Assembly: GCA_964356375.1 (NCBI GenBank)
Contig: CAYHGT010000001.1
Location: forward strand, 9,221 to 73,220
Direction: 5' to 3'
Origin: an uncultured Candidatus Saccharibacteria bacterium
Lineage (GTDB): Bacteria > Patescibacteriota > Minisyncoccia > UBA6257 > GWB1-50-10
Length of the DNA: 64,000 nt
The translations under genes were made by a program, and so were the position numbers. The notes beneath the pieces were generated by a model. It worked only from the letters and a program-made list of their open reading frames with translations. It did not search any database and was not told where the DNA came from. Of the stretch, positions 2,807 to 61,417 are shown piece after piece (position 1 is the first letter of the stretch; the number at the start of each line of letters is the position of its first letter).

Positions 2807-4522
2807 ATGATAAATCTACCCCCTGAACGACTTAGAGAATTGCTTTTGAAAGCGGGTATTACAACTCCCGATGTGTTTGCATCTATGTTGGATGAAGCAA
2901 AGCGCAAACAGCAGAATGTGAACGATGTGCTCATCTCACAAGGAATCATCAACAAGGAATACTTGCTGATACTTATCGCACAAAATCTCGGTGTGGAGCG
3001 TGTGAATCTTGGCGTGGTAAAGGTGGACGAGGTGGCACTCAATCTCATTCCAGAGGATGTGGCTCGCCGTAAAAAAATTATTGTATTTGGTAAAGAACTT
3101 GACGGGAAATATAAGGTTGCGATGGATGATCCAAGCGATTTGGAAACGATTGATTACTTGAATTTGAAACTTAGCGGGCAGGTGAAGCCGTACCTTGCAA
3201 CCGAAGAAGATTTGAATCGCGGATTCGTGCTTTATGGAGAAAGATTGACACAGGATTTCCAGCAGATTATTGAGACGAGTGTGCGTGAGTCACTTCGCTC
3301 AAAAGCGCGTGGCGATGCAGAGAAGGATGCGCAAGACCTTCCGATTGTCGCAATTGTGGACAATCTTCTCTCCTACGCAATTTCTTCACGCGCATCCGAT
3401 GCGCATTTTGAGGCGTTGGATGATGTGGTACTGGTTCGCTTTCGTATTGATGGCGTGTTACACGAAATAATCAGAATGCCGAAAGAAATTCAAGCAGCGG
3501 TCGTGGCGCGTATTAAAATTCTCTCAAACCTCCGCGTGGACGAACACACGCATCCACAAGATGGTCGTTTTCGTCACAAGATGGGGAGCACGGCGGTAGA
3601 CATCCGCGTATCTATTATTCCAACATTTTATGGCGAGAAGATTGTTATGCGTCTTTTGACCGCTGCGCAAAAACCGCTTTCGCTTGCGGACCTTGGTATT
3701 TATGAGGACGATATTAAATTGTTGGAAAACGCAATCAAGAAAACATACGGCATGGTGCTTGCTGCGGGTCCTACCGGTTCTGGTAAAACGACTACATTGT
3801 ATTCACTTTTGAATATGATGAATAAGCCGGATGTGAATATTATCACGATTGAAGACCCGATTGAATATGATATGCGGTATGTGAACCAGATGCAGGTGAA
3901 TGTAGCTGCTGGTATTACATTTGCATCCGGGCTTCGTTCTATCCTGCGCCAAGATCCAAATGTGATTATGGTGGGTGAAATCCGTGATGCGGAAACCGCG
4001 AACATTGCGGTGCAAGCGGCGCTCACGGGACACGTCGTGCTTTCAAGCTTGCACACGAACGATGCGCCGACCGCAATCCCGCGCTTTATTGATATGGGCG
4101 TACCTCCGTTTCTCGTGTCTGCGGTTTTGAATACCGTTATTGCACAACGTCTTGTGAGAAAAATTCACGTGGAGTGCATTGAATCATATGCCCCACCAAC
4201 CGCATTTCTTGGGGCAATTAAGCATGAGCTGGAGCAGAGCGGTATTGCAGAAGAAAGTGTGAAGGTTCCCAAAACATTTTATCGCGGGAGAGGGTGCGCG
4301 GCATGCGGGCATACTGGATACTTGGGACGACTTGGTATTTATGAGGTGTTAAATATTACGGAAGAGGTGCGTAAACTCATAATTAGCTCTGATTTTAACC
4401 TTGATACATTGCGCCATTTGGCGCGTAGCGAGGGAATGTCCACTATGTTTGAGGACGGTCTCCGCAAGGTTGAGCGTGGCGTTACTACAATTGAAGAGGT
4501 CCTACGCGTTATTAGGGAATAA
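2807..4522 (+). CDS. pilB: Type IV pilus assembly ATPase PilB (GspE family)
   Basis: 571 aa. N-terminal GspE_N-like region, Walker A GPTGSGKTT, Asp/His boxes, and a C-terminal tetracysteine (CIESY...CAACGHTGY). Confidence 0.9.
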   Translation: MINLPPERLRELLLKAGITTPDVFASMLDEAKRKQQNVNDVLISQGIINKEYLLILIAQNLGVERVNLGVVKVDEVALNLIPEDVARRKKIIVFGKELDGKYKVAMDDPSDLETIDYLNLKLSGQVKPYLATEEDLNRGFVLYGERLTQDFQQIIETSVRESLRSKARGDAEKDAQDLPIVAIVDNLLSYAISSRASDAHFEALDDVVLVRFRIDGVLHEIIRMPKEIQAAVVARIKILSNLRVDEHTHPQDGRFRHKMGSTAVDIRVSIIPTFYGEKIVMRLLTAAQKPLSLADLGIYEDDIKLLENAIKKTYGMVLAAGPTGSGKTTTLYSLLNMMNKPDVNIITIEDPIEYDMRYVNQMQVNVAAGITFASGLRSILRQDPNVIMVGEIRDAETANIAVQAALTGHVVLSSLHTNDAPTAIPRFIDMGVPPFLVSAVLNTVIAQRLVRKIHVECIESYAPPTAFLGAIKHELEQSGIAEESVKVPKTFYRGRGCAACGHTGYLGRLGIYEVLNITEEVRKLIISSDFNLDTLRHLARSEGMSTMFEDGLRKVERGVTTIEEVLRVIRE

Positions 4523-8744: not shown

Positions 8745-8855
8745 CTTTACCGAGCACATAAATTAACACGCAAAGCATTAATCAATTCTCTTATTTATTT
8801 CCGATGAAAAAGAAAAATTATAAACCAAAGTTTTCAATTTATGTGCTCGGTGCTC
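8745..8855. promoter_or_regulatory. Conserved inverted-repeat element, copy 2, spanning the promoter, RBS, start codon and first leader codons of the third pilin-LamG gene
   Basis: Perfect 15-bp inverted repeat ACCGAGCACATAAAT (8749-8763) / ATTTATGTGCTCGGT (8837-8851). The start codon at 8804 lies inside the loop. The flanks CTTTACCGAGCAC and GTGCTCGGTGCTCGATT match copy 1. Confidence 0.45.
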
Positions 8856-21124: not shown

Positions 21125-24100
21125 ATGGAAAAAAACTTAGAAATAACAAATATTTCGGTACACCTCGCATCTCCCGAACAAATAATTAAGTGGTCGTACG
21201 GCGAGGTTATAAAGCCAGAAACATTGAATTATAGAACACAGCGTCCTGAAAAAGACGGTCTGTTTTCCGAGCGTATTTTCGGTCCGACGAAAGATTACGA
21301 GTGTTATTGCGGAAAGTACAAGAAGGTTCGTTATAAGAATATTACATGTGAAAAATGTGGAGTGGAAGTGACGCGCGCAATTGTGCGTCGTGAACGCATG
21401 GGTCACATCACGCTTGCAACGCCTGTCGCGCACATTTGGTTTTTGCGCACAGTGCCATCAAAGCTCGGCTTGCTCTTGGACATTTCCGTCTCAAAACTTG
21501 AAAAAGTTGTGTACTACGCGGCGTTTATCGTAACGGCGGTAAATGATGATAATAGAAAACGCGCATTGGAAACATTGCATGGCGAGTTGAAGTCAATAAA
21601 GGGTGAGAAGGGTTCAACAAAAACAATTGAAGCAACTGCAGAAAATTTGAAGCAGGTCTTGCTAGCCTTGAAGCCCGGACTCATTTTGACCGAAAACGAA
21701 TACTTTTCTCTCGCAGAACGCTTTGGCGATGTGTTTGAAGCGGATAGGGGCGCGGGCGCGTTGCGGAAGATTTTGGTGCACATTGATTTGAAAACATTGT
21801 TGCGTCACTTGAGAAAGGAACTCACTGAAGTAAACGATGAAAACCGCTTGAAAAGAATTTTACGCCGTTTGAAACTCGCGCAGTCATTAATTGATTCTGG
21901 GGTACGTCCCGAGTGGATGGTCTTAACAGTTCTTCCTGTGCTTCCTCCTGAACTTCGTCCGATGGTTGCGTTGGAGGGTGGACGTTATGCGACCGCGGAT
22001 TTGAATGATCTGTATCGTCGCGTCATCAATCGCAATAATCGTTTGAAGAAGCTTATTGAACTTCGTTCGCCTGAGGTTATTTTGACGAACGAAAAACGCA
22101 TGCTTCAGGAAGCGGTGGATGCCTTGATTGATAACACCGCACGCGCAGGAAGTCAGCTGCTTTCAACGCGCAGAAGGCCACTTCGCTCGCTTGCGGATAT
22201 GTTGAAGGGTAAGCAAGGGCGTTTCCGTCAGAACTTGCTTGGAAAGCGCGTGGACTATTCAGCGCGCTCCGTAATCGTGGTGGGTCCGGAACTAAAACTT
22301 GATGAGTGCGGACTTCCGAAAAACATGGCGCTTGAACTTTTCAGGCACTTTGTGATTAACAAAATTATTGAACGCGGACTCGCATTTAACATTAAGCAGG
22401 CAAACCGATTTATAGAACAAGGTTCACCAGAAATCTGGGCAATTTTGGAAGAGGTGATTCAGAATAAGCGCGTACTCTTGAACCGCGCACCGACATTGCA
22501 CCGTCTTGGTATTCAGGCATTCCGCGTGCTCTTGATTGAGGATTTGGCAATTCGTATTCCACCACTTGTGTGTAGCGCATTTAACGCCGACTTTGACGGA
22601 GACCAGATGGCGGTCCACCTGCCACTCACTGCGGAAGCGCAGTATGAAGCGAAGGAACTTATGAGTGCATCGCGCAATCTTTTGAAGCCCGCAAACGGCG
22701 ATCCGATTGTGACTCCGACACAGGATATGGTACTTGGCATATACTTTTTGACACGCATCATTGATGGCGCGAAGGGTGAGGGGAAGGCACTTTCCAGCCA
22801 ATCCGAAGCAATGTTCGCATACGAAAGTGGGTTTATTGATATCAACGCAAAGATTAAGGTGGTGATTGATGGAGTGATGACAGACACATCACTTGGCCGT
22901 TTGATATTTAATGGTGTGTTACCGCCCGATTTCGGATTTGTGAACGAACAGATGAATAAGAAAAAGCTTCCGAAGCTTGTTGCAAAAATTATTGAAAAGT
23001 ACGGATTGCTTGAAGCAAGTAATTATCTTGATGCAATCAAGAATCTTGGCTATGAATATTCAACCGTCTCCTCTATTACGTGGAGCGCGGGCGACATGGT
23101 AATTCCTACTGGGAAGTACAAAGTATTGGACGAGGCGGAGGAGCAAGTTGCTGTAATTGAATCGCAATTCAGCGATGGATTGTTGACTGAGAGGGAACGC
23201 CGCGGAAGAGTTATTGATATTTGGAACGAGACACGCGAGAATGTGGCGAAACTTATTCCGGCTTCATTCCAGCCGACAAACCCCGTGTATGCAATTATTG
23301 ATTCTGGCGCGCGTGGTAGTTGGGCACAGCCAATGCAAATGATGGGTATGAAGGGTCTCGTGATTAATCCGCAGGGTCAGACGATTGAGCTTCCTGTGAA
23401 GTCATCTTACAAAGAAGGGTTGCGTGTGATTGAATATTTCATTTCTACGCACGGAGCTCGCAAGGGTACGACTGATACCGCTTTAAAGACCGCAACTGCA
23501 GGGTATCTTACGCGTCGTTTAGTTGATGTATCTCAAGATTTGATTGTTGAAGAGAGCGATTGCGAAACCGATGAGGGTATTTCCATTGTGCGCGCCGAAG
23601 GCGACGCATATGGCTACGCATTTGGTGATCGCGTATATTCGCGCGTGGCAGTTGAGGATATTAAGGATGTGCGCAAAACCATCGTGAAAGCAGGTGAAAT
23701 AATTGACCGCGATGCGATAAAACTGATTCAGGATTCAAAGATTGAAGTGGTGAAAGTATTTTCTCCAATCACGTGTCGCGCCACAAATGGCGTGTGTGCA
23801 AAGTGTTATGGATACGACCTTACAAAAAATAAGCTCGTGGAATCTGGAACTGCGGTGGGTATCATTGCCGCGCAATCAATCGGTGAACCGGGAACACAGC
23901 TCACGATGAGAACCTTCCATATTGGAGGTATCGCGGGTGTTGACATCACACACGGTCTCCCTCGTGTGGAAGAACTTTTTGAGGCACGACCTCCAAAAGG
24001 TAAGGCCCCACTCGCGAAAGAAGATGGATTGGTTGATATCATTGAAGAAAAGGGACTTGCGCGTATCATTAAGATTAAAAAAGCAAAAGGCAAAATTAAA

Positions 24101-24835
24101 AAAGGTGATACGGCGTCCTACGATGAGTATCTCGTGCCGAGCAACATAAATGTGCTCGTGAAGGAAGGCGAGAAGGTGAAGAAAGGAGATGCGTTAACCG
24201 AGGGTCCACTTGATCTCCGTGAATTGCTCGCATTCCGCGGACTTGAAGCGGTGGAGCACTACATCATTAACGAGGTGCAAAGAATTTACATTCCGGAAGG
24301 CGCGTCAATCAACGACAAGCACATTGAAATAATTGTGCGTCAGATGCTTTCGCGCGTAGTGGTGATGGAGCAAGGCGATGGAGAATTTATGCCCGGCGAT
24401 ATTGTAGAGAAAAATATCTTTATTACTGCAAACAGGGGACTTAAGAAAGAGAAGAAATCAATTTCAAAGGGTCTCTTGAAAGTACTTGGCATCACGCGTG
24501 TAGCGCTCAGTTCTGCAAGCTTCCTTTCCGCGGCATCTTTCCAGGAGACAACACGCACACTTGTGAATGCCGCTGTGGAGGGAAAGGTAGACCCGCTCCG
24601 TGGTCTTAAGGAAAACGTAATTATTGGTAAGCTTATTCCTGCAGGAACGGGAATGCATGGAATTTCGGCTGAGGCATTAAAACCGTGGAAATTGGAGCAT
24701 GCGGCGATAGCGCCAGAGGACATTGCGGAAGCGAAGGCGGAAATGGTGCCAGAGCCCGTTGTAGTGCTTGAGGAAGTGTCGGCTGAGGGTGAGGTCGCAA
24801 TGCATGAGGAAACAGAAGAGGGGAAAGAAGAATAA
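21125..24835 (+). CDS. rpoC: DNA-directed RNA polymerase subunit beta-prime
   Basis: 1236 aa. Zn-binding [21 protein letters not shown] and the catalytic [12 protein letters not shown]. Confidence 0.97.
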
Positions 24836-24945
24836 CTAACAACCTACGGGAAAAGACCCCCATCCGATTAGTTGTGGGTCGTTAGTCAGCAGATTTGACT
24901 CAATCCCGCATACTTGTTACTCTCTAAGACGTATCTAATATACAC

Positions 24946-25368
24946 ATGGAACAAGAAATGAACGAATTGAAAAACCGCTATGAGCTCTCGTTTGTAACGC
25001 AGAGCGAAGATGCTGCGTCCGTAAAGGCGTTGCTTGCGAAAAATAACGCGCAGATCGTAAACGACCGCCCGATTTCCAAAATCCAGCTCGCATATAAGAT
25101 TGCAAAACAAGGATATGGATTTATGGGAACGAGCGAGTTTTTGGCAGACGCTGAATCAGCGGTTGCGCTTCGCAAGGATATCCAGCTTGAGAAGGATATT
25201 TTGCGCGGAATTGTGATAAAGTTGAAAGAGCCAAAAGTGAGCGAGACGGGAACGGAAGAAAGGATGGTTGGAAAGGGCCCAACCGCTCCACAGCGTCTTC
25301 GCAATATGTTTGGCGGAGCACTCTCAAACGAAGCACTTGAGAAGAAGATAGAGGAAATATTACAATAA
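24946..25368 (+). CDS. rpsF: 30S ribosomal protein S6
   Basis: RYELSFVTQSED...IQLAYKIAKQGYGF pattern of S6. It sits in the canonical rpsF-ssb-rpsR order. Confidence 0.75.
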   Translation: MEQEMNELKNRYELSFVTQSEDAASVKALLAKNNAQIVNDRPISKIQLAYKIAKQGYGFMGTSEFLADAESAVALRKDIQLEKDILRGIVIKLKEPKVSETGTEERMVGKGPTAPQRLRNMFGGALSNEALEKKIEEILQ

Positions 25369-25375
25369 GAGTATA

Positions 25376-25528
25376 TGAATCCCGTTAGAGTTTTACACAT
25401 TAACAACAAACAAGAGGGATGAATCCCGTTAGAAAATTACAAACAATGTTTTTAAGTAAATACAAAGTTAATAACGCTTATATTATTAGTCGAAAAACAA
25501 AGACCTTAATTTTCTAACGGGATGAATC
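25376..25528 (+). promoter_or_regulatory. Repeat/hairpin element between rpsF and ssb: two direct copies of ATGAATCCCGTTAGA and one inverted copy that contains the ssb start codon
   Basis: Copy a at 25376-25397, copy b at 25419-25440, inverted copy c at 25507-25528. b and c can pair over 20/22 bp with a 66-nt loop. The ssb ATG (25522) lies inside arm c. Confidence 0.45.
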
Positions 25529-25995
25529 TGAACAAAGTTTTTCTTATTGGCCGTCTTACGAATGATCCTCAATTGAGGAGTACTCCTGGTGGACAGTCAG
25601 TTGCTTCATTTTCAATTGCGACAAATCGTAATTGGACGGACAAGCAGGGAGTAAAACAAGTTGATGTTCAATTTCACAATATAGTGGCATGGGGGAGACA
25701 AGCGGAAATTGTAAGCCAGTATATGAAGAAGGGAGGACTCATAATGATTGAAGGCCGTCTTCAGACGCGCAACTGGAAGGATAAGCAAGAGCAGACGCGT
25801 TCTACTACGGAAATTGTGTGCGAATCACTCCAACTTGGTCCTCGTGCCACGGGTGGTGCAGGAGATTTTGGGGGAGGAGCGCCGAGAAGTTCATCGCAAG
25901 AAGCGAAACGCGACGACTACTCACAGGACGCAAAAGAGACGCTTCCGGAAATAGACATTGATGAAGAAATAAAAGCGGAAGATATTCCATTCTAA
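25522..25995 (+). CDS. ssb: Single-stranded DNA-binding protein
   Basis: OB-fold N-terminus (LIGRLTNDPQLRSTPGG...), a Gly-rich linker, and the acidic DIPF tail. Confidence 0.9.
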   Translation: MNLNKVFLIGRLTNDPQLRSTPGGQSVASFSIATNRNWTDKQGVKQVDVQFHNIVAWGRQAEIVSQYMKKGGLIMIEGRLQTRNWKDKQEQTRSTTEIVCESLQLGPRATGGAGDFGGGAPRSSSQEAKRDDYSQDAKETLPEIDIDEEIKAEDIPF

Positions 25996-25996
25996 A

Positions 25997-26206
25997 ATGA
26001 AAAATATGAAACAGTGTTCGTTTTGTTCGCAAAATTCAAAAGAGATTGATTATAAAAACGCAGACCTTTTGAAGCGTTACACTTCAAGTCAGGCGAAAAT
26101 CATTGATCCGCGCCACACCGGCGTATGTGCGAAACACCAACGCGCTCTTGCGAGAGCCATTAAACGCGCGCGTGTTATGGGTTTTTTGCCGTTTGTGAAG
26201 CAATAA
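25997..26206 (+). CDS. rpsR: 30S ribosomal protein S18
   Basis: IDYKNADLLKRYTS...GVCAKHQRALARAIKRARVMGFLPF. Confidence 0.85.
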   Translation: MKNMKQCSFCSQNSKEIDYKNADLLKRYTSSQAKIIDPRHTGVCAKHQRALARAIKRARVMGFLPFVKQ

Positions 26207-32005: not shown

Positions 32006-32463
32006 TACCACATTTCTACAGTAATATTATTGCAACTGGTTCTCATCACATTGAACTATATGATGGGTGTGTGAGGTATCGGCCGGTACTCTCACGTATC
32101 AGGATTGTGGCGAGGTATGATGTTGGGCTAGCGTATACGTTTTTAAAACAGAGGTAGGTTGTGTGGACGACTGACAACGCAATATTTTCGGATTTCAAGT
32201 TGTTCTTTCTTTAATTATTTTCACTTGAAATCATACGAATGCGTAGTATCAGTGGTTCACAACACCCCTCTGTTTTATTACGTCTAGAGAGGAGCGAAAT
32301 AAAAACGTATTCGTTTTCATTTAGTCCGAACGACGACGGAACAAAAGTATTGAATCACGCGGGTTGCCCAACGATTCAATACTTTTTATTTTGTCTAGAA
32401 TTTTTTGACAAAATGTCGCAACAAGTGCATTCTGTTTTTAGTAACTACCAAAAGGAGGACACT

Positions 32464-39720: not shown

Positions 39721-39745
39721 GTGGCAATCTATAAATTTTAACGGG

Positions 39746-40294
39746 ATGAATCCATTAGAAGAATTTAAAACAGGCATTGCGGGAGCAATACAGGAACTCA
39801 AAAAAGAAGTGGGTGGCGTTCGCGCAAACCGTCCATCCGCCGTCATTTTGGAAGATATTAAAGTAAATTATTATGGCGAACAAACGCCGATGAAACATCT
39901 TGGTTCCATCTCGGTACAGCCCCCTCGAGAACTTATCATTCAAATTTGGGACGCAAGCGCGGTAGCGCCCGCGGCAAAAGCAATTGAAAGCGCATCGCTC
40001 GGGCTCACGCCGAATACCGAAGGAAATACCATTCGCATTTTTCTTCCAGAGCTAAGCTCGGAGCGCCGCGAGGAGCTTAAAAAATATGTAAAAAAGATTG
40101 CGGAACAATTTCGTATTCAGGTGCGCCAGTTGAGGGATGTTGCGAACAAGCAAATTGAATCGCAGTTTGATGAGGGGGAGCTTGGGGAGGACCAAAAATT
40201 TAAATTAAAGGAGGATGTACAGAAGCACACAGAAACGACAAACAAGGAAATTGAGAAGATGGTAGATGCGAAGATGGTGGAAATTGATGAATAA
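39746..40294 (+). CDS. frr: Ribosome recycling factor
   Basis: The start was chosen at the internal Met (MNPLEEFKTGIAGAIQELKKE...) of the track ORF 39689. The start context AACGGGATGAATCC resembles that of ssb. Confidence 0.85.
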   Translation: MNPLEEFKTGIAGAIQELKKEVGGVRANRPSAVILEDIKVNYYGEQTPMKHLGSISVQPPRELIIQIWDASAVAPAAKAIESASLGLTPNTEGNTIRIFLPELSSERREELKKYVKKIAEQFRIQVRQLRDVANKQIESQFDEGELGEDQKFKLKEDVQKHTETTNKEIEKMVDAKMVEIDE

Positions 40295-41386: not shown

Positions 41387-41390
41387 TTAT

Positions 41391-41460
41391 GAGTCCCGTT
41401 AAAGTTTTATGTCCCTACGGGACATCTCCCGCAGGGAGACAAACTTGTACAACGGGAGTC
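41391..41460 (+). repeat. Structured element: an outer 10-bp near-inverted repeat enclosing the 31-nt double-hairpin unit (ATGTCCC-TAC-GGGACAT + TCTCCC-GCA-GGGAGA)
   Basis: GAGTCCCGTT (41391-41400) / AACGGGAGTC (41451-41460), 9 of 10 pair. The inner unit at 41409-41439 is 30/31 identical to the reverse complement of 53324-53354. Confidence 0.55.
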
Positions 41461-41519
41461 GTAAAAAAACAAGAAATCATAGATAATAAAAATAACAAAC
41501 CAACAAAAACTCTAACTGG

Positions 41520-43223
41520 ATGAAACAATCAAAATATTTTCTAAAAACAAGCAAGACATTTTCCGAGGAGGACAAAATTGTTTCATCAAAATTATTGAAG
41601 CAAGCGGGATTCATTCAGGAGTCCGTTGCGGGCAGATATTATTTTTTGCCGATTGGCCACAAGGTTCAGCAGAAAATCATGAGCGTTATTAAGGAGGAGA
41701 TGGATGCTGTGGGCGCGCAAGAAATGATTGTGCCAACTCTGCATCCCTTGGAATTGTGGAAGGAGACAAATCGCACGCACACAACAGGGTTTGAGCTTAC
41801 GAAGGTAAAAGACAGGCGAGGTTCGGAATTTGCGCTTGGTGGGACGGCCGAAGAAATGTTTGTGGATTTGGTTCGCAAGTATCAGTTGAGCTACAAGGAT
41901 TTGCCGTTTCAGCTGTATCAATTTTCCAATAAATTTCGCGATGAACTTCGTGCGCGTGGAGGTCTTTTGCGCGTGCGCGAATTTATTATGAAGGACGCCT
42001 ACTCATTCCATAGGAACGAAGAGGATTTTAAGCTTATGTACGAACAAATGAAGAAGACGTACTCGCGCATTTTTGAACGAATGGGTGTGCAGACGATTGC
42101 GGTTGAAGCCGACAATGGGTATATTGGCGGGGAATACAGTCACGAATTTATTGTAGAATCCGAAATCGGCGAGAGCAGATACTTTGTGTCTGAGGACGGT
42201 GCGTATGCGGCGAATGAGGATGTCGCAAAATTCAAACGAAATCCCGCAAATGCAAACGAGGAGCAAAAATCATTTGAAATAATTGAACAACCGATGTGGG
42301 TAGAGACGATGGATGATAATGTAAAGCACTACAAGAAAGACGGGGGCAATTTCTTGAAGAACGTTGTCTATAAAAATAGCAGAACGGGAGAAATCATCAT
42401 CGCGGTTGTAACGGGCGATTTGGAAGTCAATAAAACAAAGCTTGAAAACGTATTGAAGGCAGTGGGCCAGCTTGTCCATGCGGAGGATGCGGATCTCACA
42501 GCGCTTGGCACAAAGAGCGGATATGTGCATTGCTGGGGTCACAAAGGTGCGCGCTACATTGGCGATATTGTATTGAAAGATGCTCGCAATTTGATTGGCG
42601 GTCAGAAAGAAGAAAAGACCGATTCTATAAATGTAAATTACGGCCGTGATTTCACGTGTGAGATGCTTGCCGATATTACAATGGCAAAGCCGGGGGACCT
42701 TTCGGAAGTGGGAAGCGCATTGCAAGAAGGACGCGGTATTGAGGTGGGTAATACGTTCCAACTCGGATTCCACTATACGAATCTTATGAAGGGCGCGAAT
42801 TATCGCGATGAGGATGGCGTAGAGAAGCCCTATTATATGGGATGCTATGGCATTGGCGTGGGTCGCACGATGGCAGCGCTTGTTGAGAAGTTTAATGATG
42901 AGAAAGGCATCATCTGGCCGAAAGTCATCGCACCGTTTGACGCACATCTCATTTTGCTTGGTAATATAACACCTGATTTGAAAAATGCAGCAGAAGGGTT
43001 ATATACTTCGCTTAGGAGTAAGGGGATTGATGTGCTCTATGACGATAGGGATGGCCTGTCTGCGGGAGAGAAGTTTTCTGACGCCGACCTTATCGGAATC
43101 CCAGTAAGAATTGTTATAAGCGCAAAAACGCTTGCGGGAGGAAAGTATGAAGTAAAATTGAGAAATGAGAAGGATGCAAATCTGGTAACGGAAGAGGAAC
43201 TACTGAAACTCATTCAAAAATAA
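41520..43223 (+). CDS. proS: Prolyl-tRNA synthetase (class II)
   Basis: 567 aa. Class II motifs and a C-terminal anticodon-binding region. Confidence 0.88.
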   Translation: MKQSKYFLKTSKTFSEEDKIVSSKLLKQAGFIQESVAGRYYFLPIGHKVQQKIMSVIKEEMDAVGAQEMIVPTLHPLELWKETNRTHTTGFELTKVKDRRGSEFALGGTAEEMFVDLVRKYQLSYKDLPFQLYQFSNKFRDELRARGGLLRVREFIMKDAYSFHRNEEDFKLMYEQMKKTYSRIFERMGVQTIAVEADNGYIGGEYSHEFIVESEIGESRYFVSEDGAYAANEDVAKFKRNPANANEEQKSFEIIEQPMWVETMDDNVKHYKKDGGNFLKNVVYKNSRTGEIIIAVVTGDLEVNKTKLENVLKAVGQLVHAEDADLTALGTKSGYVHCWGHKGARYIGDIVLKDARNLIGGQKEEKTDSINVNYGRDFTCEMLADITMAKPGDLSEVGSALQEGRGIEVGNTFQLGFHYTNLMKGANYRDEDGVEKPYYMGCYGIGVGRTMAALVEKFNDEKGIIWPKVIAPFDAHLILLGNITPDLKNAAEGLYTSLRSKGIDVLYDDRDGLSAGEKFSDADLIGIPVRIVISAKTLAGGKYEVKLRNEKDANLVTEEELLKLIQK

Positions 43224-59234: not shown

Positions 59235-59426
59235 GGAGATGGCTCTCTTCTTGCCTTTCGGAACCAGAATATTTTTCTGTTGAAAAATTCCTGCCTACCG
59301 GCAGGCAGGTCTTCCCCCTCAGCCACCTTCGTGGCTTGTGGGATGTTCCTCAAGGCAAGAAGAGCGCCAAGCGTGGAGTGAGGGGTGAAGAGGGTGAGGC
59401 TCGCTTCAACAGAAATTTTATAATAC

Positions 59427-61159: not shown

Positions 61160-61190
61160 AACACCCCCGCGTTGCGGGGGTGTTTTGTAT
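61160..61190 (+). terminator. Strong rho-independent terminator after rplL
   Basis: AACACCCCCGC-GTT-GCGGGGGTGTT followed by TTGTATTT. Confidence 0.8.
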
Positions 61191-61335
61191 TTCTGTTCTC
61201 GCTCGTTTTCTCCGCCACCGGATGTCGCTTTGCTCCTGCGGCAAAGCGCATCGCTACCCTCTCGGCGAAAAAATCCTTCGGATGCCAAGCTTTTTCACCT
61301 CCGAGAGTTGTCGGAAAAAACGAGCGAGAACAGAA
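61191..61335. repeat. 145-bp element bounded by 19-bp perfect terminal inverted repeats (MITE-like, or a structured small RNA) upstream of tRNA-Val
   Basis: TTCTGTTCTCGCTCGTTTT (61191-61209) and AAAACGAGCGAGAACAGAA (61317-61335). Nested internal hairpins GCTTTGC/GCAAAGC (61227-61247) and CTCTCGG/CCGAGAG (61257-61304). Confidence 0.45.
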
Positions 61336-61417
61336 ATGAATGGTGATTGGGTGAAGCCAAGCAGATAAGAAAGACACAATTGCCTTTTTGCACTCCGACT
61401 GCTATAAATATTCCTAT

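Follow-up and report, generated by a model that had tools for sequence, protein, structure and literature searches.

A repeat-bearing spacer before ssb in a Candidatus Saccharibacteria genome: probable insertion of MITE-like elements at the start codon

In the stretch of DNA analysed here, 64,000 nucleotides of a contig from an uncultured Candidatus Saccharibacteria bacterium (hereafter the window), the gene for ribosomal protein S6 (rpsF) and the gene for the single-stranded DNA-binding protein SSB (ssb) are separated by a spacer of 153 nt. The spacer carries two direct copies (a and b) and one inverted copy (c) of a 15-mer, and the ssb start codon lies inside the inverted copy. A preliminary description of the sequence had taken this arrangement for a switch by which SSB or the S6:S18 complex regulates its own operon, or for an attenuator. 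We propose that the spacer consists of two tandem non-autonomous elements, E1 and E2, which resemble MITEs (miniature inverted-repeat transposable elements) and were inserted in a TGAA overlapping the ssb start. That the spacer is a mobile repeat and not an operon-specific regulator is, in our judgement, very probable. The joint explanation, in which such an element is tolerated through translational coupling in the manner of MIRUs (the interspersed repetitive units of mycobacteria), is probable, and we lean slightly towards a relay of short open reading frames (sORFs) as the means by which it is tolerated.

The rpsF-ssb spacer and its repeat family

The repeats before ssb were found to be real. 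The exact 15-mer ATGAATCCCGTTAGA occurs at 25375-25389 and 25419-25433, the first of these one base from the 25376 given in the preliminary description, and the inverted copy at 25513-25527 has 2 mismatches to it. When up to 3 mismatches were allowed, ATGAATCCCGTTAGA matched 6 times in the window against 1.83 expected, a number reached in 0 of 100 shuffles. The direct repeat can be extended to 23 nt with 87% identity, and the inverted repeat has arms of 36 nt (25418-25453 and 25493-25528) that are 78% complementary; within them, copies b and c pair over a perfect 17-bp core (25423-25439 with 25507-25523). RNA folding of 25410-25535 gave -31.5 kcal/mol (z = -5.55), a value equalled in none of 200 shuffles. 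The shuffled matches and the fold score together indicate that neither the repeats nor the strong hairpin arose by chance. The ATG within the inverted copy was also correctly recognized as the ssb start (25522, 157-aa SSB), and the two other sites that had been noted are present as well, TTTAACGGGATGAATCC at the frr start (39737-39751) and ATGAGTCCCGTTAAA at 41389.

We then compared 80 ssb loci from species-representative genomes, which place the organism among the Patescibacteria/Parcubacteria. In the closest relatives (L001, L002 and L003, whose SSB is 82, 82 and 71% identical) the spacer and the repeats are absent: the rpsF stop is followed after 6-8 nt by ATGAATCTGAAC, and the junctions, which represent empty sites, read CAATA(A/G), 6-8 nt, ATGAA(T/C)(C/T)TGAACAAAG. 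The preliminary description had itself named a lack of the paired repeats in relatives as evidence against its operon-specific regulator, and the proposed switch fails on this point. Compared with these junctions, ATGAA and TCTGAAC are separated by 147 additional nt in the window. The ATGAA at 25375 occupies the same position as the ssb ATG of the insertion-free relatives, 6 nt past the rpsF stop, and an exact excision at this junction, if it occurs, would restore ATGAATCTG. The same pair of termini, ATGAATCCCGTTAGA...TCTAACGGGATGAA, was found at the ssb start of the distant loci L005, L009, L010 and L059, with variants in L037 and L007. These copies in other lineages have different interiors, and the inner extensions of their stems covary. 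The core of the element is present in 6 of the 80 ssb loci, and 4 copies lie in the 6.4 kb that make up L009.

The element belongs to a dispersed family. We collected 140 complete elements, mostly 98-128 nt long, from 1.3 Mb of loci of Parcubacteria genomes and groundwater metagenomes; their termini are TCCCGTTAGA...TCTAACGGGA, and the 10-nt core TCCCGTTAGA is invariant through the way in which the copies were collected. A metagenome scan with the pattern ATCCCGTTAGA-N78-108-TCTAACGGGAT gave matches in at least 120 contigs. Identical 4-nt flanks were found on both sides of most elements, TGAA or its complement in 74 cases, TGGA in 15, TAAA/TTTA in 4, TGTA in 3, and TCTA, TCAA and TGCG once each, and a logo of the flanks showed that conservation stops at -5 and +4. 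Because the flanks are identical within a copy, differ between copies and have nothing conserved beyond them, they represent a target-site duplication. Just inside the core, three stem positions covary among 119 copies and are 96-98% paired (A-T 72/G-C 41; A-T 55/G-C 50/T-A 7; T-A 61/C-G 48). By structure the element is MITE-like, being small and dispersed, with inverted termini, a target duplication, and empty and filled sites. Several tandem pairs (L009 2776-3001 and 5531-5855; L084, L166 and L170) share a central (A)TGA(A). The duplicated start codon itself was thus used again as a target in these pairs, as in E1 and E2 of the window. The upstream copies a and b had been described as decoys; their ATGs are target-site duplicates of the ssb start, not evolved decoys.

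Cores found without a partner were mostly chance matches inside genes or degenerate copies, and a scan of viral contigs for the element gave 0 matches. Rfam searches of the window, both spacers and 12 loci with canonical copies, at gathering and at permissive thresholds, returned only tRNAs and spurious matches to microRNA hairpins, and no match was obtained in 24800-25600 at E values up to 10. Full-text searches of the literature gave no description of this family, an absence that is no proof of novelty; the family appears to be undescribed.

Start codons, short reading frames and a possible relay

The element occupies start codons. In 119 of the 140 copies, its last A and the flanking TG form the start of an open reading frame (ORF) that is at least 60 aa long or is cut by the contig end, and in 3 further cases the copy is the inner one of a tandem pair. 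Among the 128 Pfam families of the downstream genes are SSB, RRF (twice), GTPases, FtsW, aminoacyl-tRNA synthetases and HPF; because these families are unrelated, the tagged genes do not form a regulon. The interior keeps one orientation with respect to the gene: CYTR-NN stands before the 3' core in 50 of the 119 copies and at the mirror position in 2 of 119. For 48 of the 119 copies, the ATG of the left duplicate, which we call the pseudo-start, lies no more than 10 nt from the end of a co-directional upstream ORF, and 16 of these 48 are ATGA overlaps; many insertions thus lie at operon-internal, translationally coupled junctions. In the window only 10 of 52 genes have a Shine-Dalgarno-like tetramer and many gene pairs are spaced by -4 to +8, so that coupling or leaderless starts look like the norm. 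A TATAAT-like box was seen 6-8 nt before the ATG of several genes that follow larger gaps (10279, 50994, 61629 and rpsF at 24946), which suggests leaderless mRNAs. Before the pseudo-start, TANNNT at a distance of 4-9 nt was found in 21 of 42 copies that have no upstream ORF end within 40 nt and in 14 of 38 operon-internal copies, a difference that is a hint only.

We next analyzed the reading frame that begins at the pseudo-start. The left duplicate retains its ATG in 91 of 119 copies, and the frame opens as ATG-NAT-CCC-GTT-AGA (MNPVR...). Frames were compared on the interiors only, because the 5' arm itself closes frames +1 (by TGA) and +2 (by TAG) by construction. The pseudo-start frame was free of stops across the interior in 40 of 91 copies, compared with 16 and 6 of 91 for the other forward frames and 8-17 of 91 for the reverse frames (Fisher p = 1e-10 against the five frames pooled). 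Shuffled interiors gave 10.3 +/- 3.0 open frames with a maximum of 19, and among the copies that lack the pseudo-ATG only 2 of 28 were open in that frame (Fisher p = 2e-4). The interiors are AT-rich (34.5% A, 29.4% T) and have a median pairwise identity of 49%; when they were clustered at 65-80% identity, the excess of open frames survived, with 26 of 52 clusters open at 65% identity. The ends of these frames are also placed precisely: 37 sORFs stop at one of two points, a TAA in the 3' arm that leaves 4 nt to the real ATG, or a TGA that shares bases with the real ATG. The periods of the elements are biased to 1 and 2 modulo 3 (45, 29 and 17; p = 0.0015), and in only 3 of 91 copies is the element open and in frame with the downstream gene.

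At the ssb junction of the window, rpsF, sORF1, sORF2, ssb and rpsR form a chain of reading frames with spacings of +6, -4, +4 and +1 (Table 1). The final base of E2, A25522, is the A of the ssb ATG, and the right copy of the target duplication, TGAA at 25523-25526, lies inside the ssb start. The arms of E2 together with A25423/T25523 make up the perfect 17-bp stem. sORF2 runs through both arms and ends with a UAA (25515-25517) inside the 3' arm, 4 nt ahead of the ssb ATG. As the preliminary description had claimed, the b:c hairpin buries the ssb initiation region in silico: in the ensemble, the A and U of the AUG and the preceding 15 nt are unpaired with a probability of 0.01-0.05, and the AUG of the pseudo-start at 25375 with a probability of about 0.9. 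The claim that copy a could serve as an alternative partner of c also held in the computed energies (-18.9 kcal/mol for a:c, -24.1 for b:c), and blocking arm b in silico led arm c to pair with copy a. The attenuator, in turn, found no support, since no terminator-like site was detected on the + strand in 24830-25620 and no U-tract follows the hairpin; the sequence 3' of the 3' arm of E2 is GAAUCUGAAC. A promoter-like sequence, TTGAGA-18-TACAAT, is present at 25337-25366 within the 3' end of rpsF and is not above the shuffled expectation; this stretch is highly conserved among relatives at the nucleotide level. Judged by its position, it would put a transcription start near the ATG at 25375.

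These data suggest how the insertion could be borne. On our reading, repeats a and b are the 5' terminal inverted repeats of E1 and E2, c is the 3' terminal inverted repeat of E2, and the long-range hairpin is the pairing of E2's own two arms. Each insertion duplicated (A)TGAA. One ATG was thereby left in the original context, 6 nt past the stop of rpsF, and the real ssb ATG was formed anew, its A being the element's last base and its TG coming from the duplicate. The pseudo-start would thus inherit the original initiation context. Ribosomes would initiate there, either by reinitiation after rpsF or at a near-leaderless 5' end, and would translate sORF1 and, coupled to it through the ATGA overlap, sORF2. 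Translation of sORF2 would pass both arms and end at the UAA in the 3' arm, 4 nt before the ssb AUG, so that the stem would be unwound and the ribosome brought to the real start, where it would reinitiate. In this way ssb and then rpsR would remain translationally coupled to rpsF, and the insertion would be nearly silent. The scheme also assumes co-transcription of the operon and an enzyme for transposition. Because arm c turns to copy a once b is blocked, termination within arm c would be a more robust way of delivering the ribosome at this locus than simple unfolding of the stem.

Copies and other repeats in the window

The window contains further copies besides the complete E2, which the family profile detected over its full length with nhmmer (E = 8e-8). 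E1 belongs to the AGAGTTTTACA...ACAAGAGGG subfamily; it matches the L145 copies over the first ~38 nt and then ends, and its nhmmer match covers model positions 1-20 (E = 0.0076). From its sequence, E1 probably suffered an internal deletion between GGG microhomologies. The third copy, E3, was missed by the nhmmer family profile and was placed by alignment to the L145 copies. Its neighbours are an M50 peptidase gene and a gene for a ProRS (prolyl-tRNA synthetase)-like protein with its ATG at 41520-41522 (Pfam). The interior of E3 has an extra GC-rich piece at 41412-41465, with the hairpins GTCCC-TAC-GGGAC and CTCCC-GCA-GGGAG, which may have arisen by nested insertion or through duplication of an arm within the element. 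It also contains AACGGGAGTC, which pairs with the 5' arm, and the local fold reaches -38.6 kcal/mol (z = -5.6). At frr, the remnant gave a weak nhmmer match (E = 6.5); full elements are found at the frr start in two metagenome contigs.

Table 1. Features of the rpsF-ssb junction and of the other element copies in the window
Feature	Position	Strand	Basis or remarks
ATGAA, left target duplicate and first pseudo-start	25375-25379	+	flank logo, junctions of relatives
Element E1, 40 nt, internally deleted, own 3' arm lost	25380-25419	+	alignment to L145 copies
sORF1, MNPVRVLHINNKQEG, then stop	25375-25422	+	15 codons; TGA overlaps next ATG (ATGA)
ATGAA, second pseudo-start at E1/E2 junction	25419-25423	+	repeat match
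Element E2, complete, 99 nt	25424-25522	+	5' arm 25424-25439, 3' arm 25507-25522
sORF2, MNPVRKLQTMFLSKYKVNNAYIISRKTKTLIF, then stop	25419-25517	+	32 codons through both hairpin arms
Element E3, diverged full copy, same subfamily as E1	41394-41520	+	pseudo-start ATGAG at 41389
E3 sORF	41389-41523	+	44 codons, open across whole element; TGA overlaps downstream ATG (ATGA)
Solitary 3'-arm-like remnant, TTTAACGGGA	39737-39746	+	ends on A of frr ATG (39746-39748)
rpoC	21125-24835	+	ORF list and Pfam
rpsF (ribosomal protein S6)	24946-25368	+	stop TAA 25366-25368; ORF and Pfam Ribosomal_S6
ssb	25522-25995	+	157-aa SSB; ATG 25522-25524; ORF and Pfam
rpsR (S18)	25997-26206	+	begins 1 nt past ssb stop; ORF and Pfam

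Four other long-range inverted repeats of MITE size lie in the window (8749-8851, 32144-32277, 59240-59369 and 61189-61337), with arms of 16-29 nt that are 71-94 nt apart. They are unrelated in sequence to E1, E2 and E3 and may represent further repeat families. Insertions of other kinds were also observed at the rpsF-ssb junction itself: the loci L022, L027, L029, L004, L011 and L023 of other Patescibacteria carry unrelated inverted-repeat insertions at a distance of ~100-200 nt before position 3001. The insertion of L022 looks MITE-like with a TA duplication, and its first G completes the rpsF stop codon. Several repeat families seem to share this junction as a hot spot. In L052 a copy of the present element (2619-2733) lies between the ssb stop and the rpsR start, with TAA abutting the 5' arm and no pseudo-start; 6 copies have a stop codon directly at the base of the stem in this way.

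Alternatives, known systems and significance

The reading from which the analysis started, that SSB or the S6:S18 complex binds the spacer and toggles it between the a:c and b:c pairings to control ssb and rpsR, accounts for the burial of the ssb AUG and for the alternative pairing, both of which were seen in silico. It is nevertheless very improbable. More than 100 genes with no relation to one another carry the same termini at their start codons, the copies at ssb differ in their interiors between lineages, and the closest orthologous junctions have no spacer at all; in addition, there is no Rfam match and no U-tract terminator on the + strand after the hairpin. A known S6:S18 leader is a structured motif in the rpsF 5' UTR (untranslated region) that mimics the S18 site of 16S rRNA and is conserved across orthologues; the element is downstream of rpsF, is missing from the closest orthologues and has no Rfam match, and this candidate was rejected together with the intrinsic terminator or attenuator, for which the sense strand has no U-tract. 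Other classes of repeat were tried and set aside as well. An insertion of the IS200/IS605 type is ruled out, as the flanks covary as true duplications. An integron attC site has the form 5'-RYYYAAC ... GTTRRRY-3' in an imperfect palindrome without target duplication; in the present element the hexamers are in the opposite order (GTTAGA ... TCTAAC) and variable 4-nt duplications are present. Repetitive extragenic palindromes (REP) and the bacterial interspersed mosaic elements (BIME) are described as GC-rich palindromes of 20-40 nt with a GTAG or CGTC head (PMC3733652). They are likewise ruled out, since the elements are 100-125 nt long and AT-rich in their interiors, with neither head.

Three further explanations accept the dispersed repeat and differ on what, if anything, it does. 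The element could be merely tolerated, with ssb expressed from an internal or upstream promoter, through breathing of the hairpin or through RNA processing, and with the open frames a by-product of family history. Half of the copies have early stops, copies without the pseudo-ATG still stand at intact genes, and a promoter-like sequence exists at 25337-25366, though it does not exceed shuffles. We consider such tolerance without any relay unlikely, because open frames are 3- to 6-fold in excess in the pseudo-start frame specifically, in interiors that share only ~49% identity, because the sORFs stop precisely +4 or -4 from the real ATG, and because the AUG region is ~99% paired in an organism almost without Shine-Dalgarno sites. 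The family might instead be a domesticated cis-acting module that spread by transposition, in which a conserved protein of the host, or an RNase, would bind the core TCCCGTTAGA and all tagged genes would share an input (for example an RNA thermometer, a site of processing or a regulator acting on translation globally). The fixed orientation to the gene and the conserved CYTR bulge before the 3' arm would fit this, as would the recurrence of the 10-nt core in several Parcubacteria lineages, though the core is invariant by the method of collection. The target genes show no functional coherence, presence at orthologous loci is patchy, no candidate binding factor was identified and recognition by a transposase would conserve the termini equally, all of which makes the module improbable. 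Least probable of all is that the sORFs encode functional micropeptides of an MNPVR... family: 40 of 91 copies do have uninterrupted ORFs of 32-43 codons beginning MNPVR/MDPVR, but only the residues encoded by the inverted repeat are shared, the interiors are unrelated as peptides and many copies carry stops.

Several observations weigh against insertion followed by a relay, the explanation that we prefer. A search of the 1.3 Mb of loci for termini 250-3000 nt apart yielded neither an autonomous element nor a transposase with matching ends. In some copies the flanks do not match (L052, for instance, has TTAA/TGCA), and these call for a further explanation, such as recombination between elements. 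No presence/absence polymorphism was seen within the population: of the 9 contigs found with this exact SSB, those that include rpsF all keep the same 153-nt spacer. The window itself comes from a contig of a Hainich groundwater metagenome (Hain_H52_01um_R1_39, 121,663 nt). The occupancy of start codons by 85% of copies could reflect target preference, purifying selection in a very compact genome, or both. As for the frames, the copies without the pseudo-ATG may simply be older, which would confound the comparison of 40/91 with 2/28, and in about half of the copies the sORF meets a stop early on. Read-through to the end can therefore not be obligatory; such copies would rely on unwinding of the 5' arm alone.

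Among known systems, the closest parallel to the element is the MIRU. In PMC12548453 (citing Supply et al. 1997), MIRUs are described as mobile, as inserting at start codons and as containing an internal ORF coupled at -4, and their mode of insertion as likely to minimise the effect on the host gene; they are flanked by tetranucleotide direct repeats (PMC3184786). The present element shares with them the form of a short dispersed repeat at start codons and operon junctions, an internal sORF coupled to the downstream gene, tetranucleotide duplicates and a proposed minimal effect on the host, and it differs in that most of its coupled copies use +4 (UAA-CGGG-AUG) where MIRUs use -4. Furthermore, it occurs in Patescibacteria whereas MIRUs occur in Actinobacteria, it has long perfect terminal inverted repeats forming a hairpin that buries the real start, and its last base supplies the A of the ATG. 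By this analogy it would work like a MIRU, and we do not file it as a member of that family.

With MITEs such as Correia/NEMIS of Neisseria, Nezha of cyanobacteria and ERIC/RU of enterobacteria, the element shares a length of 100-130 nt, inverted termini, target duplication and a stable RNA stem-loop; like them it has no gene for a transposase, is present in many copies and leaves orthologous sites empty in some genomes and filled in others (PMC3184786). Its duplication, however, is of 4 nt (TNNA, mostly TGAA) where theirs is TA, and ~85% of its copies lie exactly on start codons, in one orientation and with a stop-free frame maintained. The Neisseria repeat REP2 also supplies the translation start, including the ATG, to many unrelated genes, but REP2 carries a promoter and a ribosome-binding site (PMC3184786), whereas the present element has neither a Shine-Dalgarno sequence nor a significant promoter. 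It would act, if at all, via the sORF and the hairpin. Translational coupling as such is known from rpmI-rplT, from genes VII-IX of phage f1 and from the coat and lysis genes of MS2; there too a structured downstream start is opened by the ribosome on the upstream frame, with stop-to-start distances of -4/+4 (PMC12548453). In those systems the upstream frame is a host gene, and here it is a non-conserved sORF on a mobile element. Rickettsia palindromic elements (RPEs) are palindromic selfish repeats that survive in a compact genome by compatibility with translation. They differ from the present element in lying in frame inside coding sequences and being translated within the protein, whereas only 3 of 91 copies here are both open and in frame.

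These results replace a tempting annotation, that of an autoregulatory leader for ssb and ribosomal proteins, with a testable one. The family will also mislead RNA-motif and covariation screens in the genomes of candidate phyla, because its stems covary and sit at conserved genes. The elements are a natural experiment on initiation, be it by reinitiation, coupling or leaderless starts, in uncultured bacteria almost without Shine-Dalgarno sites, and each could serve, as it stands, as a 'bicistronic design' cassette. Co-option of some copies may have served to make translational coupling strict, in this case from S6 to SSB to S18. We put forward, tentatively, the wider view of a stealth transposon of Patescibacteria/Parcubacteria that homes to start codons (ATGRA) and has evolved a built-in sORF relay convergent with that of MIRUs. 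If the relay is true, the MIRU strategy would have a second and independent example, and it would be seen how selfish DNA can settle in ultra-compact genomes at the point where a gene is most sensitive.

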